A stretch of DNA of 64,000 bases. Origin: Eledone cirrhosa (Eukaryota). Position numbers and translations under genes: made by a program. The stretch's first letter is position 1. Each line of letters starts with the position of its first letter. Shown piece by piece: positions 38,781 to 63,942 of this stretch. Under the pieces are notes generated by a model. The model was not told where the DNA came from and searched no databases. It saw nothing but the letters and a program-made list of their open reading frames with translations. The stretch covers positions 35,836,001 to 35,900,000 of the forward strand of contig OZ024745.1 in NCBI GenBank assembly GCA_964016885.1. The letters are read 5' to 3'.

Positions 38781-40623
38781 AAGTATATATCCCTACACGC
38801 AAAAAGCGTCCAGGGACACATGTATTGTCCAACCATATGCCAATGTGGTTCAATGGCAGGTTAATAATTTAACGAGCCAGAACATATATAATCAAAGTTT
38901 AGCAAATAAGAAAAAGTTTCAAAATAAATTTCAAAAAATTCACTGTACTCACTATGGTCACCTTTACCGAATCGGTTTCGAGTCTCAAAAATAAATGGAC
39001 AGTCCTTGCGGCCTTCCATTGAAAAGATAAACTCTCGTCAGAAGGTTCTTTTCACTCGGAGAATATAAAATTCCCGAGTTCAAATTACGAACTAGCGCTA
39101 TTCCTAATTGTTCCCGAGATGAGAATGAATGATGTGGAAGCAATTCTGTCCAGTGCCGTGTGTAAAGATAGAAGCAGAGACAGGGAGGTCAGTCTACTAC
39201 CACTATAAATAGCACAGTCAAAACGCCAAATTTTATCTCGACCAAGAGAATAATAAATATATATTAGAAAGTGAGGTTTTTTTTTAACAAAATGAAAAAT
39301 AACCGAGGTGTCCTACACCAATGAAAGTATAAGGAAAAAAGATGAAATCGAAAATGCAACTGGAGTCTTTTTTTTTTAAAATATATTTACTTATTTGGTT
39401 CCTTTACCGGTTTCTCAGTTCTTCTACTTTTCAAAAGTACAGTTGAGATGGAGGGTCTGTGGTTTTTCTCACATCTGGTTGGTCTTTGAATGTTACTTGT
39501 TTCATATGGAGAAAAGTGGCTCGAAATCCCAGGTTTTTAGAGAAGTTGTTTGATTGGTTGGTGAATGAGTATAATGAATTTCGCGCCAGTTCGCGTTACA
39601 AAGTTTTTCAAACAAAGGAGGAAGGGGGGTGAGTGAAGTTTGGTTGGTTGATGCAGTCACGTGAATAAGCACATTAGCTTTCGCGCCAGTTGGTGTTTGA
39701 ATTTCTTTTTACTTAAATAAAAGTGGCTCACGAAGGCTTCTTTTTATAAATGTAATTTGATTGGTTATAAATGAAATTATGACTGTCACGTGAGCAAGTA
39801 CATTAAACTCGCACCCGTATTTTGGAAATTTTATATCCATTTACAGAATTTTGTTCCAAACAAAAGATAATGGTTAAGAAAAAAGGGATGGAGAGAGTTG
39901 TTCTGAGTATGACTGATGTGCTGAAATGTAATTTGATTGGTTATAAATGAAATTAAAACTGTCACGTGAACATGTTCATTAAATTTCGCGCCCGTATTTG
40001 GGAATTTATTTTGCAGCCTTTTAGAGAATTTTGTGCCAAACAAAAGATAATGGTCAAGAAAAATTGGATGGGGAGATTGTTCTGGTTCAGTGAATATGGT
40101 TGGTGTGCTGGAGTGTCAGAATTCAGACTTTCTATTGAAATAAAGAAAGTATAGATATGTATGTTTATTTGTGTGCGCGCGTGTGTGTGTGTGTGTGTAG
40201 GAAGATGATTCTATTAGTAGAAATGGGGGGGGGGGGTTGTGTGTGTATGGGTGTTATGTGTGCATGTGTGTGGGAATATGGTTAGCATGTTAATATGTTT
40301 ATATATATATATATTGTGTGTGTGTTGTGTGTGTGTCTGTGTATGTGTGTGTATGTGTGTGTGGGAGTATGGTTAGCATGTTGAGATGGAGAGAATATAT
40401 ATTTTTTTTGTGTGTATAGGAAAATGATTCCGTTAGTAGAAATGGGGGAGGGAGTTATATTGTGTGGAGGCTGTTGTTAGCATGTTAAGGTGTTCGAGTA
40501 TTAACGTATGTTGAGGTTTATTTAGTTCTGGTTTTTATTTTCTAAAGTAGAAGGTGTTATGTGTGTGTGTATATATGTGTCTGTTTGGATGGTTAGCATG
40601 TTATGGTGTTGACATAATGTATA

Positions 40624-41020
40624 TTAAACTATATTTAATGCTGGTCTATATTTTTGAATAAACATATTTTCCTTATTTATTCGTATTTTTCTGTTGAAAT
40701 TTTCAGCGCAAAGATAAAATGGGAAGACTTGGAATTTGGGTGTCTTATTACTTGCGCATATGTCTAGATGTGCGCTTAGTGGTATCTGTCTCGTGGTTGG
40801 ATCTCGTAATCGTTGGCGATGAACTGTCATTCTGTTTCTGAGTGTGAGTTTAGTTTGTCCTATATAATCTTCATTGCATCATTTACATTTAATGGCATAA
40901 AGTAGATTTTTTTATGAGCAAGTGAAGCAAATTTTTACAGCAAGATTTTGTCCTGATTGAAATGTATACGTGTTGCCACAATTAGAACGACCACATTTTT
41001 TGACAGTTGGTTGTGGGTTT
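40624..41020 (-). pseudogene. PLE Cys-linker plus GIY-YIG endonuclease (Neptune-like)
   Basis: PTVKKCGRSNCG..YAIKCK*CNEDYIGQTKLTLRNRMTVHRQRLRDPTTRQIPLSAHLDIC..FPFY..KENMFIQKYRPALN, with stops and frameshifts. Confidence 0.88.
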
Positions 41021-41095
41021 GTTCCAAATAAAACAAGTAACATTCAAAGACCAACCAGATGTGAGAAAAACCACAGACCTTCCCTCTCAACTGTA

Positions 41096-41131
41096 CTTTT
41101 GAAAAGCAGAAGAACTGCGAAACCGGTAAAG
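41096..41131 (+). ncRNA. Hammerhead-like motif, TTGAAAA core variant (twin at 39402-39437 -)
   Basis: CTT-TTGAAAA-GCAGaagaaCTGC-GAAA-CCGG-TA^AAG; stems I and II and palindromic stem III are all present. Confidence 0.65.
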
Positions 41132-41205
41132 GAACCAAATAAATATATATATTTTAAAAAAAAGACTCCAGTTGCATTTTCGATTACATTCCTTTTCCCT
41201 ATATA

Positions 41206-41264
<59 letters not shown>

Positions 41265-41360
41265 GAAGTAATTCCGTCGGAAAAGTCCAGGAAAAAAGAA
41301 TGCTCTATGTAGGTAACAAAGCTTAATAGTTATGTAATAAACAACATAAGGCAATTATTC

Positions 41361-41414
41361 CATTTACCAGTGGTTTCTTAAAAGCAGAAAATGTTGCTTT
41401 CAATCATCAGAATG
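41361..41414 (-). ncRNA. Type I hammerhead ribozyme
   Basis: Mirror of 41500-41553 with an intact core. Confidence 0.85.
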
Positions 41415-41499
41415 AAAAAATCCTGGGCTATTTATTGATATTGGATTCTTTTTTTTTTTTTTTTGGAATCCAATATCAAAAAATTGACCAGGATTTTTT

Positions 41500-41553
41500 C
41501 ATTCTGATGATTGAAAGCAACATTTTTTGCTTTTAAGAAACCACTGGTAAATG
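41500..41553 (+). ncRNA. Type I hammerhead ribozyme
   Basis: CATT-CTGATGA-TTGAAAGCAA-catttt-TTGCTTTTAA-GAAA-CCAcTGG-TA^AATG: perfect core, ~10-bp stem II and 4-bp stem I. Confidence 0.88.
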
Positions 41554-41581
41554 AAATAATTGCCTTATGTTGTTTATTACA

Positions 41582-41644
<63 letters not shown>

Positions 41645-41650
<6 letters not shown>

Positions 41651-42618
41651 TGAAACAAAATGAAAACGAAATTTCATTTCTCACTCTTAGTATGGCACTT
41701 ACTTAAATGTAAGTATGCATGTATACGTACATACATATATGTATACAGACGTACAGTAGCATGCACATATATATATATATATATACATATATACATACAT
41801 ATGCATACAGGTACACATACATATATGCACGTATCAGTTTAGCGGCGCTTATTATAACGTCGCTTTGTTCGTTTGTAAACAAACTGAACAGCCTGAATTT
41901 ATGCCATACGGTGTTAAGGCAACCACGTCACCTTTTTGTTGCCTTAAACCGTATGGCATAAATTCAGGCTGTTCAGTTTGTTTACAAACGAACAAAGCGA
42001 CGTTATAATAAGCGCCGCTAAACTGATACGTGCATATATGTATGTGTACCTGTATGCATATGTATGTATATATGTATATATATATATATATATGTGCATG
42101 CTACTGTACGTCTGTATACATATATGTATGTACGTATACATGCATACTTACATTTAAGTAAGTGCCATACTAAGAGTGAGAAATGAAATTTCGTTTTCAT
42201 TTTGTTTCAATTTATCGTTTTCGGTATGCCTGACCGATTTAACTCACTCAATATGCAAATTAGGCTGCTCAGCCGTTAATTTTCATAAGGAAAGTATATA
42301 CTTTCGAACGTTCAACTATCTGGCAGATGGGTAAGCGGTGCTGATGATAGCTAACAAGCTTGAAACTAGTACATCGTTCCTGTGTCAGTGTTGAACAAAA
42401 AGGTGACGTGGTTGCCTTAACACCGTATGGCATAAATTCAGGCTGTTCAGTTTGTTTACAAACGAACAAAGCGACGTTATAATAAGCGCCGCTAAACTGA
42501 TACGTGCATATATGTATGTGTACCTGTATGCATATGTATGTATATATGTATATATATATATATATGTGCATGCTACTGTACGTCTGTATACATATATGTA
42601 TGTACGTATACATGCATA

Positions 42619-42622
<4 letters not shown>
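41645..42622 (+). mobile_element. Non-coding retrozyme-like ~470 bp partial tandem with inverted 5' arm
   Basis: Arms 41645-41923 / 41938-42215, direct repeat 41938-42150 = ~42410-42622, HHR at 42336-42376, (TA)n on both sides. Confidence 0.85.
42336..42376 (+). ncRNA. Minimal type I hammerhead ribozyme
   Basis: CGGTG-CTGATGA-tAGCTaacaAGCTt-GAAA-CTAG-TA^CATCG, with palindromic stem III ACTAGT. Confidence 0.88.
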
Positions 42623-42660
<38 letters not shown>

Positions 42661-44974: not shown

Positions 44975-46723
44975 ATTGTTATATTTGGGGAGGGTCATAT
45001 TTGCGTAATATTGCCAGAATTAATAACAGAACACACTCACTGTTTGGTTGGTTTTCGCTTCTCGCTGTCTTTTATATATATATATCTGCGATCTAACTTA
45101 CTCGGTCCTCAATGTTGCCATTGACTGACCGGCGGTCAAAAATAATACAGATACAATATAGACAAACACATATATATATAGTTTACATAATTTACATAAA
45201 TCTTTCGTTGCACATCTGCAACATCGTCAGTGGTGTTATATTCATTGTTCCTCCTGTTGTGTTGTATGTCTACGCCATTTTTTTTTTTTTGTTCAGTCTG
45301 TCTATATATTTATTTATTTATTTGCTTGTTTGTTTATCTTATTTTATTTTGTCTTCTTTGCGCATGCGTTTGCGTGTGTGTATAGTGTTATGTGTGATGT
45401 GTGACTAGTGTGTATAGTGTTGTGTATGCTGGGTGACTAGTGTGTGTTTATGTGCTTGTGTATGTATTTATTTATCTTATTTAATTTAATTCAATTTACT
45501 TATACTTCTCTTAGGTCAGTGTTGTTTGTTTGGGTGTTGTTGTTGTTCCACTCATTCTTTCTGTTTAGCTTTGGTCTTCTAATTTCTATTTCACTGGCCT
45601 CTCTGATTTGCCTATCTGCTGGGTCATTCCTATGTTTAGATATTATTCTAATTTCTATGTTGTCTATGTTACCGTCATGTTGTTGTCTAGCATGTTCGTA
45701 TAGTACTGACCCGTTTTTTCGTCCTTTTAGTTCCCCCCAGTGTTGGTCTATCCTTTCACCTATGCTACGAGCTGTCTCACCTATGTATGTTGTTGTCGTG
45801 TTTCTGCAAGTACCCTCTGTACATATTATGCTATAGACTACGTTTCTAGTTTTACAGTTTATCCGGGGGTTCACCTTACATATGATACATTTCCTATTGG
45901 TACAGTGGGTTTTCTTAAAGGGGTAGGTTTTGCTGATCAGGGATTTTATGGTGGTTCCTGGCTTTTCTACCACCTTTATTTTTAAGTGGGTCTTTCTCAG
46001 GGCCTTTCTACACTGGTTAGCTAATTTCCCTCCAGGGGTGGCGTCCACAAACATGACACTCTGATATCTCTGGTTGTCGTACCATGATGTGGCCTTCCCT
46101 ATCTTATGTCTAGCCCTATCTAAGCTATTCCATGATTTGCTCCTGTATAGTGGGCAAATTCCTTTCATGTCCAGTTCTATGAGGGTCTTATACTTTTCCA
46201 TGGCTCCTTCGTATACTCTGACTCTGTCTCTTTGGTTGTAGCCAGAGAACTGCATGCGGTTGATGAAGTGTTGGATGTGTCCTTCCATTTCTGTTGGGTC
46301 GCACATGCTGGACACATTCTTCATCACTCGTACCAAATCTGCGATCAGAATATTAAACTTAGCACTACTGGACATTGCTGAGTTTTTGAGTATCAGGTAT
46401 TTGGAGGCCATGGGTTAAGCATAGTGTGAGTGGAGAATTTGGGCTCTCTCGTCTATAGTGTTAATCCAGAGTTCTGTGTCTAATACAGGTAGTCTATTGT
46501 TAGGGTGTTTGGAAGGGAAGTCTATAGTTACAGTTATACTCTGGTGTATGGAATTAGCTATCTGCTGGATGCTTTCCATCGTGCTACGTTCTAAATCAAA
46601 CTTGTTAGTGCTCTCTAGTGGGGGTGTTCTGGCAATATTACGCAAATATGACCCTCCCCAAATATAACAATATCTGTTTCGACACACGATTTCATATAAA
46701 AAACCTCGCAAAACTAATTCATC

Positions 46724-46725
<2 letters not shown>
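44975..46725 (-). mobile_element. 5'-truncated PLE (probably Naiad-like) with inverted terminal copy
   Basis: 45 bp inverted repeat 44975-45019 vs 46627-46671, extra right tail to TA at 46725, and an internal RT/GIY-YIG ORF. Confidence 0.88.
45500..46600 (-). pseudogene. PLE RT C-terminus/thumb, Cys linker and GIY-YIG endonuclease; one nonsense codon
   Basis: IDFPSKHPNNRLPVLD..HSHYA*PMASKY (TAA at 46415-46417 joins the two ORFs in frame), SGY, SVMFVDATPGGKLA, KVVEKPG, CTNRKCIIC..C..NVVYSIIC..YIGETARSIGERIDQH..RQIREA..PKLNRKNEW. Confidence 0.93.
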
Positions 46726-46761
<36 letters not shown>

Positions 46762-63594: not shown

Positions 63595-63667
63595 TTGACG
63601 TAGATGGGAGTCGAACCCAGATCTTTGGTTATCCAGACCACTGTACTACCATTACACCAAAACATCA
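63595..63667 (-). pseudogene. tRNA-like sequence (SINE-type head)
   Basis: TGATGTT..tggtgtaatgg (A box)..TGGT-CTGGATA-ACCA..TGGG-TTCGACT-CCCA..TACGTCA; imperfect cloverleaf. Confidence 0.7.
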
Positions 63668-63869
63668 CCCGTCTTCTTCCATTCAAATTAGAAGCTATAA
63701 TCTTAGCAACTGTAATGTCAAGTAAGAATATTTTCGAAACAGCGAGCGAGTTTGAAATTATAAATATAAGCTATCGCCTTATTTTGACTAAAGAAATTAA
63801 AGAAATTATTCTTACTTGACATTACAGTTGCTAAGATTATAGCTTCTAATTTGAATGGAAGAAAACAAG

Positions 63870-63942
63870 TGATAGGTTGGTGCAATGGTAGCACAGTAGT
63901 CTGGATAACCAAAGATGTGAGTTCGACTCCCATGTACGTCAA
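63870..63942 (+). pseudogene. tRNA-like sequence (inverted copy)
   Basis: GTGCaatggtaGCAC D-arm and gagttcgactc B box. Confidence 0.7.

Follow-up and report, generated by a model that had tools for sequence, protein, structure and literature searches.

What is the short repeated unit with a hammerhead motif that lies between two (TA)n tracts in the genome of Eledone cirrhosa, and by which route did it get there? We analysed the surrounding window, a stretch of 64,000 nucleotides (assembly GCA_964016885.1, contig OZ024745.1, positions 35,836,001 to 35,900,000), together with related loci throughout the genome. The reading that we favour, with a probability of roughly 60%, is that the window locus is a truncated insertion of a high-copy retrozyme, which would be transcribed from its own snRNA-type promoter, processed into circles by cutting as a dimer, and pasted into (TA)n tracts by the RT/endonuclease of a Penelope-like element (PLE), most likely one of the Hydra clade.

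Anatomy of the insertion and extent of the family

The insertion consists of two arms, a minus arm of 296 nt and a plus arm of 684 nt, that are enclosed by a (TA)31 tract on the left (41586-41647) and a further (TA)n tract on the right (42622-42657). These tracts are the presumed target flanks, and nearly all of the family ends listed likewise pass into (TA)n. The inverted arm (41645-41940, minus strand) is 5'-truncated, and its outer 3' end lies at a point termed E2 and carries a 65-nt tail; the direct arm (41938-42621, plus strand), equal to 1.44 units, has its outer 3' end at a second point, E1, without the tail. As read from the sequence, both arms meet at an inversion junction with the 3-nt microhomology GTT (41938-41940). 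Within the direct arm, on the plus strand, the unit comprises an internal TA/TG microsatellite-like segment, the length of which differs between units (42030-42098), and the tail from E1 to E2 with its T-runs and a predicted hairpin (42150-42215; ends mapped in the family). By analogy with PMC11167929, we infer that the tail region is where reverse transcription initiates.

The unit has a period of 474 nt at the window copy and of 472-474 nt in the family. Where the unit copies overlap at the window locus, a 1-nt deletion and a 2-nt TA slip are the only differences between them, and six-frame translation of the insertion yielded short or microsatellite frames only and no real ORF. The original prediction of a monomer of ~470 nt, present in about 1.45 nearly identical tandem copies plus an inverted arm and devoid of an ORF, is thus borne out. 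Its further statement that each unit contains one hammerhead describes the family correctly and fails at the window locus, where the 1.44 units contain a single hammerhead. Since there is only one, release of a monomer from cleavage site to cleavage site is impossible from the window copy.

In the 3.0-Gb assembly, the exact 34-letter hammerhead pattern has 12,275 matches and the reversed control 0, and a pattern of the promoter region has 11,042 matches. A cephalopod origin agrees with the microsatellite content and with a neighbouring protein, for which Octopus vulgaris supplies the best named relative (60%). The loci that we sampled comprise the first 100 hammerhead matches listed and further loci, partly from the promoter-region pattern; counts are given as insertion groups, some of which are fragments of a single insertion that later insertions have broken up. 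Tandem copies, as anticipated by the original prediction, are indeed found elsewhere: among 83 groups sampled on C1, the number of hammerheads per strand is one in 55, 2-9 in 25 and zero in 3, and the longest arrays on one strand hold 7 (L031) and 9 (L191) hammerheads. The identity of the sampled copies to the window copy spans ~80% to 100%, so the family is old with young members, and the window copy is among the youngest set. Contigs with the unit were also encountered in three other organisms (1-6 contigs at a depth of ~5-19) and were not read as horizontal transfer.

Sister families occur in the same genome. A young sister retrozyme (L094, 4300-7101; G000:C1:56,387,100-56,389,900) has a 467-nt period, at least five near-identical units and a hammerhead with a canonical G-C closing pair in helix II. 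At G000:C1:143.34-143.79 Mb, eight near-identical sister-family copies lie ~50-100 kb apart, which suggests a large tandem segmental repeat.

The window also holds several other elements. Directly left of the retrozyme, on the same TA tract, lies a second, unrelated tail-to-tail element (41326-41588), whose 123-nt arms each contain a hammerhead (at 41410 on the minus and at 41504 on the plus strand) that has a helix II of 9-10 bp. A 5'-truncated PLE, abundant elsewhere, occupies 44980-46745 on the minus strand; its 304-aa frame (45500-46414) shows a thumb, a Cys linker and a GIY-YIG-like domain, and the element also carries a hammerhead-like motif of its own at 45230, as well as a short inverted arm whose tail measures ~54 nt. 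An inverted pair of a 146-nt TA-flanked element (39370-39515 and 41018-41163) recurs at other loci, once at a retrozyme 5' junction (L053). Two weak tRNA matches in opposite orientation (63596-63941), with similar sequence in L235, probably mark a tRNA-derived SINE that was inserted in the form of an inverted pair.

Integration ends and a candidate Penelope-like partner

Is the end structure of the window copy a property of the whole family? In the family, the 3' ends lie at one of two fixed points, E1 (~42149) or E2 (~42215), which are separated by 65 nt, and are followed by (TA)n; 68 E1 and 62 E2 ends were listed, with some loci listed twice. The (TA)n that adjoins the insertion ends is either target or added TA. 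We grouped the insertions into 43 simple two-armed, 46 single-armed and 4 complex ones (93 groups). The simple two-armed groups combine one E1 with one E2 in 32 cases and two alike ends in none, and 11 have an unclassifiable end. The rule of one E1 and one E2, with the tail at one end only, therefore holds in 32 of 32 classifiable two-armed groups. At the 5' side, 81 ends were resolvable among 131 arms; they are scattered, with 18 in the tail region. They do not accumulate at the cleavage site, where 1 of the 81 lies (2.5 expected), and show no significant excess near the predicted transcription start (8 versus 4.8 expected among the 81 resolvable ends).

PLE insertions with an inverted arm, and with the tail restricted to one end, have been described (PMC8557442), and PMC11167929 reports that the PLE protein, a predicted dimer, cuts both strands and that reverse transcription starts at two internal sites that flank the tail of the PLE. 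The rule of one E1 and one E2 is what would be expected from priming at both ends of one cut, with a different site used at each. The 5'-truncated inverted arms, the partial tandems and the two fixed ends in all classifiable groups agree with the PLE-style integration signature that had been proposed for this locus, and we are highly confident that the unit was moved by PLE machinery. At the 5' junctions of L052, L087 and L198, retrozyme arms are fused to other small TA-targeting palindromic elements, which suggests that the two arms of one insertion can derive from different RNAs.

Which PLE would supply this machinery? Pieces of PLE ORFs are present in 35 of 85 loci (Hydra in 22, two linker-bearing families in 13 and 9), and the linker-bearing families appear Neptune-like. 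Direct joins of unit and PLE at the 5' junction occur in two of the 85 loci, both with Hydra PLEs. In L062, the left arm is the 3' end of a Hydra PLE with its tail, and the right arm runs from the Hydra ORF into a unit that ends at E1; in L056, the unit is joined directly to a related Hydra family. Both chimeras break the PLE ORF. The L062-type PLE has a tandem period of 3,918 nt and many 821-aa open frames, at 97-98% identity, among 150 scored matches at 97-100% identity. This young, high-copy PLE, found with intact 821-aa frames in tandem at L257 (G000:C3:26,523,000-26,532,999), is the candidate partner. Its motifs, RWT (RWK-like), DKT, CNCRIKNKC (CxCX5C), CNLC (CxxC) and CLH (CxH) with a C-terminal endonuclease, would place it in the Hydra clade. 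Few mollusc families figure in the description of this clade.

Two chimeras with Hydra against zero with other PLE families are suggestive, though Hydra pieces are also the commonest nearby. By-eye reading found other non-coding TA-targeting elements as partner arms as well. At the DNA level, the unit has no similarity to the Hydra PLE (best E 0.57), and Pfam gave no match in the window PLE fragment or in the Hydra fragment. We put the odds that the Hydra clade is the partner slightly below even. As parent or partner, we rejected the window PLE ORF (45500-46414) and the linker-bearing PLE family of L048, L052 and L067, which have different hammerheads and ends and no direct junction with the unit.

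Hammerhead motif and promoter-like boxes

The hammerhead of the window copy (42334-42378, plus strand; core 42341-42347 and 42362-42365) is of canonical type I, with a helix I of 7 bp, a helix II of 4 bp with a U-U mismatch at its base and the palindromic helix III ACTAGT (42365-42370). From this fold, cleavage is predicted at 42371/42372, the same GTA^C position as was given in the original prediction. The motif had also been called a canonical minimal hammerhead, of which the first word stands and the second does not. According to the definitions in PMC4209133, the canonical metazoan type I has a helix I of 6 bp, a helix II of 4 bp and a short palindromic helix III, and the minimal PLE hammerhead has no helix III, a helix II of 7-8 bp and a helix I of 4-5 bp; the window motif differs from the minimal form in all three helices. 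Rfam returned no hammerhead in the window at gathering score (best HH9, 16.9 bits, E 0.6), and its miRNA matches there were discarded as microsatellite or hairpin artefacts. Despite the sub-threshold score, the exact genome matches against none for the reversed control place the hammerhead far above chance.

The motif also appears to be maintained. Among 45 insertions that were not picked by hammerhead, 0 of 11 core sites are lineage-variable versus 87 of 260 other sites (p 0.019), and helix I covaries in full between the window family and the sister family L094. Of 28 motifs examined, 14 have a perfectly palindromic helix III; 7 could not be parsed and 7 are imperfect, mostly old copies. Five different palindromes were found (ACTAGT, ATGCAT, ACATGT, ACAGCTGT and ATGCGCAT). 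A palindrome that is kept in sister families with differing sequences would suit dimers, as originally proposed, and supports selection for dimeric cleavage as put forward in PMC4209133. In the vertebrate study bioRxiv 10.64898/2026.07.22.740005, cleavage was obtained in only one of nine predicted retrozymes.

The distant 467-nt sister family L094 and the window unit share little beyond an octamer-like box, a TATA box, the hammerhead core and the tail. Because this sparse overlap includes the octamer-like box and the TATA box, we compared the unit with the genome's own snRNA genes (loci L099, L100, L101-L123, L154, L162-L190 and L262-L275). The pattern TATG[CG][AT]AAT[TG]AG at -76 to -78 together with TATA at -30 is present in five U6-class promoters (three U6 locus types, one U6atac and RNase MRP). 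Box-less U6 copies (L112, L113 and one in L042) and 7 of 8 U6atac copies, which are likely retrocopies, were set aside before counting. The pattern [TC]CAGT at -55 to -58 is found in all of the 15 distinct U1/U2/U5 upstream regions displayed (8 distinct U1/U2 types from 28 loci and 7 distinct U5 from 14 loci), and these 15 have no octamer-like box within 95 nt. As observations on the genes themselves, U1/U2/U5 promoters show AATTA near -90, TCAGT at -56 and a TATA-like box, U6-class genes show an octamer-like box at -77 plus TATA, and a tandem cluster of more than 30 U6 genes lies on C19.

The retrozyme unit has three boxes on its plus strand. The octamer-like box TATGCAAATTAG at -72 (42252-42263) consists of the same 12 nt that stand upstream of a U6 gene in L100, the TCAGC box at -56 (42269-42273) occupies the position of TCAGT in the genome's U1, U2 and U5 promoters, and motif comparison identifies the TATA box TATATA at -30 (42295-42300). 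From the comparison with snRNA genes, the transcription start is predicted at C|A, 30 nt after the TATA box (42325). The spacing from octamer to TATA is 42 nt versus 46-48 nt in U6-class genes, i.e. ~5 nt closer, and octamer, TCAG and TATA together occur in no real gene examined. The three-box arrangement is a predicted hybrid promoter.

Several observations bear on whether these boxes are used. The two-box pattern occurs once in the window, in the retrozyme, and once in 1.34 million strand-bases of flank, in a sister-family copy. In 65 insertions picked by hammerhead and not by promoter, variants common to at least three insertions fall on 2 of the 49 sites in the promoter and on 85 of the 260 sites elsewhere (Fisher p 8e-6). 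The combination of a variant box, TATA and the hammerhead core has 761 genome matches from several divergent families, with 0 for the control. Among 27 sequences examined, which represent about five families, are non-independent and have their octamer-TATA distance fixed by the search pattern, 23 carry a TATA-like box within the interval scanned for it and 21 of these 23 a TCAG-like box at -54 to -59. We consider the promoter likely to be functional.

Proposed life cycle, competing readings and known relatives

In the life cycle that we propose, transcription would begin ~46 nt before the cleavage site and read into the next unit, two hammerheads would pair via helix III and then cut, and the cut monomer would be ligated into a circle. 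A PLE protein, predicted to act as a dimer, would cut both strands of a TA tract, so that one target end could prime at E1, and E2 would serve the opposite end. Each of the two cDNAs would span a random number of units, and microhomology would join them.

Does the template have to be a circle? Thirty-five multi-unit insertions contain 366 variants common to all units, 308 singletons and 44 partial ones; among the 366 fixed variants, only 9 are confined to a single insertion. When the two arms of an insertion are compared, no other insertion is closer to an arm than its opposite arm in 13 of 28 cases, and the opposite arm ranks in the top three in 20 of 28. Because variants are mostly all-unit or singleton and arms match closely, most arrays appear to be clonal, which is what rolling on a single monomer would produce. 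The same insertions could instead stem from linear read-through transcripts of master arrays that are mobilised by PLEs, with a hammerhead that is slow or otherwise used and with no circle formed. Such templates would account for the position-shared variants in L191, L034 and L031; in L191, the longest array, variants are common to non-adjacent units (five variants between units 4 and 9, four between units 0 and 2), which a single monomer circle does not predict. They would also agree with the report that the hammerhead is dispensable for PLE insertion in vitro (PMC11167929). The geometric fall of array length fits linear and circular templates alike. However, 5' truncation shortens arrays in each generation, so arrays must be regenerated, which is difficult to reconcile with linear templates given arrays of 7-11 near-identical units, and L046 combines 7 units and 11 shared variants with 3 singletons. 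The invariant hammerhead core and the palindromic helix III kept across families argue in the same direction. We thus consider a circular RNA template the probable one, by a modest measure, and a purely linear one unlikely. Divergent RT-PCR would be no proof of circles, since genomic tandem arrays carry the same junction, and three sequencing runs with a contig depth near a million, as for genomic DNA, were set aside as uninformative on circles.

The origin of the unit and the polymerase that transcribes it allow alternatives as well. The unit could be a detached pLTR of an unfound autonomous PLE that then spread as a satellite by unequal crossover, and there is precedent for such an origin: according to bioRxiv 10.64898/2026.07.22.740005, 24 of 57 Xenopus retrozyme families are homologous to annotated TEs, nearly all of them PLE termini. 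Our inspection covered about 100 loci out of several thousand. In none of 93 insertion groups does the unit stand as the 3' UTR or pLTR downstream of an ORF with RT and GIY-YIG, so the permanent attachment to a PLE ORF that was named as speaking against the original prediction is not what we found. In addition, both arms can be multimeric with the same variants, in line with the arm comparison above, and arrays end at E1 or E2 like fresh insertions, which together make a detached pLTR very improbable. As to the polymerase, the promoter could be of U6-type Pol III, such that most transcripts end at the T-runs of the tail and rare read-through RNAs transpose. The 12-nt box shared with a U6 gene and absent from all 15 displayed U1/U2/U5 upstreams and the TATA box at -30 point that way; RNase P, moreover, lacks an octamer and has TCAGT ~66 nt ahead of its Rfam match, so this box may not specify Pol II and the argument about the polymerase is weakened. 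On the other side, of 129 internal units that run on into a following promoter, 42 contain T5-T12 runs, with lengths like those of the terminators of the genome's U6-class genes. The transposed RNA must have crossed these runs, which favours Pol II. E2 lies a few bases past a T-run, the spacing from octamer to TATA deviates from U6-class genes, and the TCAG box sits where U1/U2/U5 genes have it. We lean toward Pol II over Pol III, and regard a Pol III cycle fed by rare read-through as improbable.

How does the retrozyme of our preferred reading compare with known systems? As described (PMC7229834; PMC7761336), metazoan non-LTR retrozymes are short, low-GC, non-coding tandem repeats with a canonical type I hammerhead per unit and without LTR, PBS or PPT. 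The present family likewise has short, low-GC tandem units, a type I hammerhead in family units, no coding capacity and no LTR, and axolotl HHR_Amex2 even has the same U-U mismatch at the base of helix II (PMC7229834). The unit is slightly longer than the 150-450 bp of metazoan retrozymes (PMC7229834) and lies inside the 51-972 bp of vertebrate retrozymes (bioRxiv 10.64898/2026.07.22.740005). RNA circles were shown for the former (PMC7229834) and are predicted for the present family. According to PMC7761336, retrozymes seem to be without promoters or motifs that point to a partner; the present family, in contrast, has conserved boxes, fixed ends of reverse transcription and inverted arms. Vertebrate retrozymes also are hammerhead tandems that co-occur with PLEs, for which PLE machinery was proposed on the strength of co-occurrence and pLTR homology (bioRxiv 10.64898/2026.07.22.740005). 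Here the link consists of chimeras and integration scars, and the unit has no homology to the candidate partner. The text of that study does not contain the words promoter, tail or mollusc.

An internal promoter in a hammerhead satellite has precedents. As cited in PMC2220036, newt satellite 2 has an snRNA-type Pol II promoter (Coats, Zhang and Epstein 1994) and a schistosome satellite has a Pol III promoter. Unlike these satellites, as known via PMC2220036, the present predicted promoter includes a TATA box and is common to divergent invertebrate families. EN+ PLEs of the Hydra clade (Craig et al. 2021, PMC8557442) and Poseidon PAc (PMC11167929) resemble the family in their partial tandems, in an inverted arm that is 5'-truncated, in a tail restricted to one end, in (TA)n targets and in a hammerhead. 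In contrast to them, the present unit has no ORF, a tail of 65 nt versus 30-40 nt, a hammerhead that is canonical and not minimal, and a predicted snRNA-type promoter.

In the literature searched, mainly open-access main texts, no cephalopod retrozymes and no such promoter arrangement are described. The claim that this locus is the best single candidate for an undescribed element is overstated: the window copy is one truncated copy among thousands, and its class has already been described (PMC7229834 and bioRxiv 10.64898/2026.07.22.740005). The original prediction did not include the predicted snRNA-type promoter, the rule of one E1 and one E2 end or the chimeras with Hydra PLEs. Given that the class of retrozymes is not new and that newts provide a precedent for a promoter within a hammerhead satellite, the family is an extension and no new kind. 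A more far-reaching proposal, a superfamily of transcriptionally autonomous animal retrozymes with a hybrid snRNA promoter, a dimer-only hammerhead, circles, a dimeric Hydra-clade PLE, two priming sites on opposite strands and sometimes two RNAs, we can offer as a speculation that is rather unlikely to hold in full.

In PMC7761336 and bioRxiv 10.64898/2026.07.22.740005, the transcription of retrozymes and the retrotransposon that mobilises them are open questions. The present family offers handles on both, namely promoter boxes with a predicted start, two fixed start points of reverse transcription and a young, intact candidate partner of the Hydra clade. The rule of one end with and one end without a tail constrains the mechanism of PLE integration itself. 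The snRNA promoter grammar of this genome is usable for native guide-RNA expression, and about 12,000 dispersed predicted snRNA-type promoters could affect neighbouring transcription.
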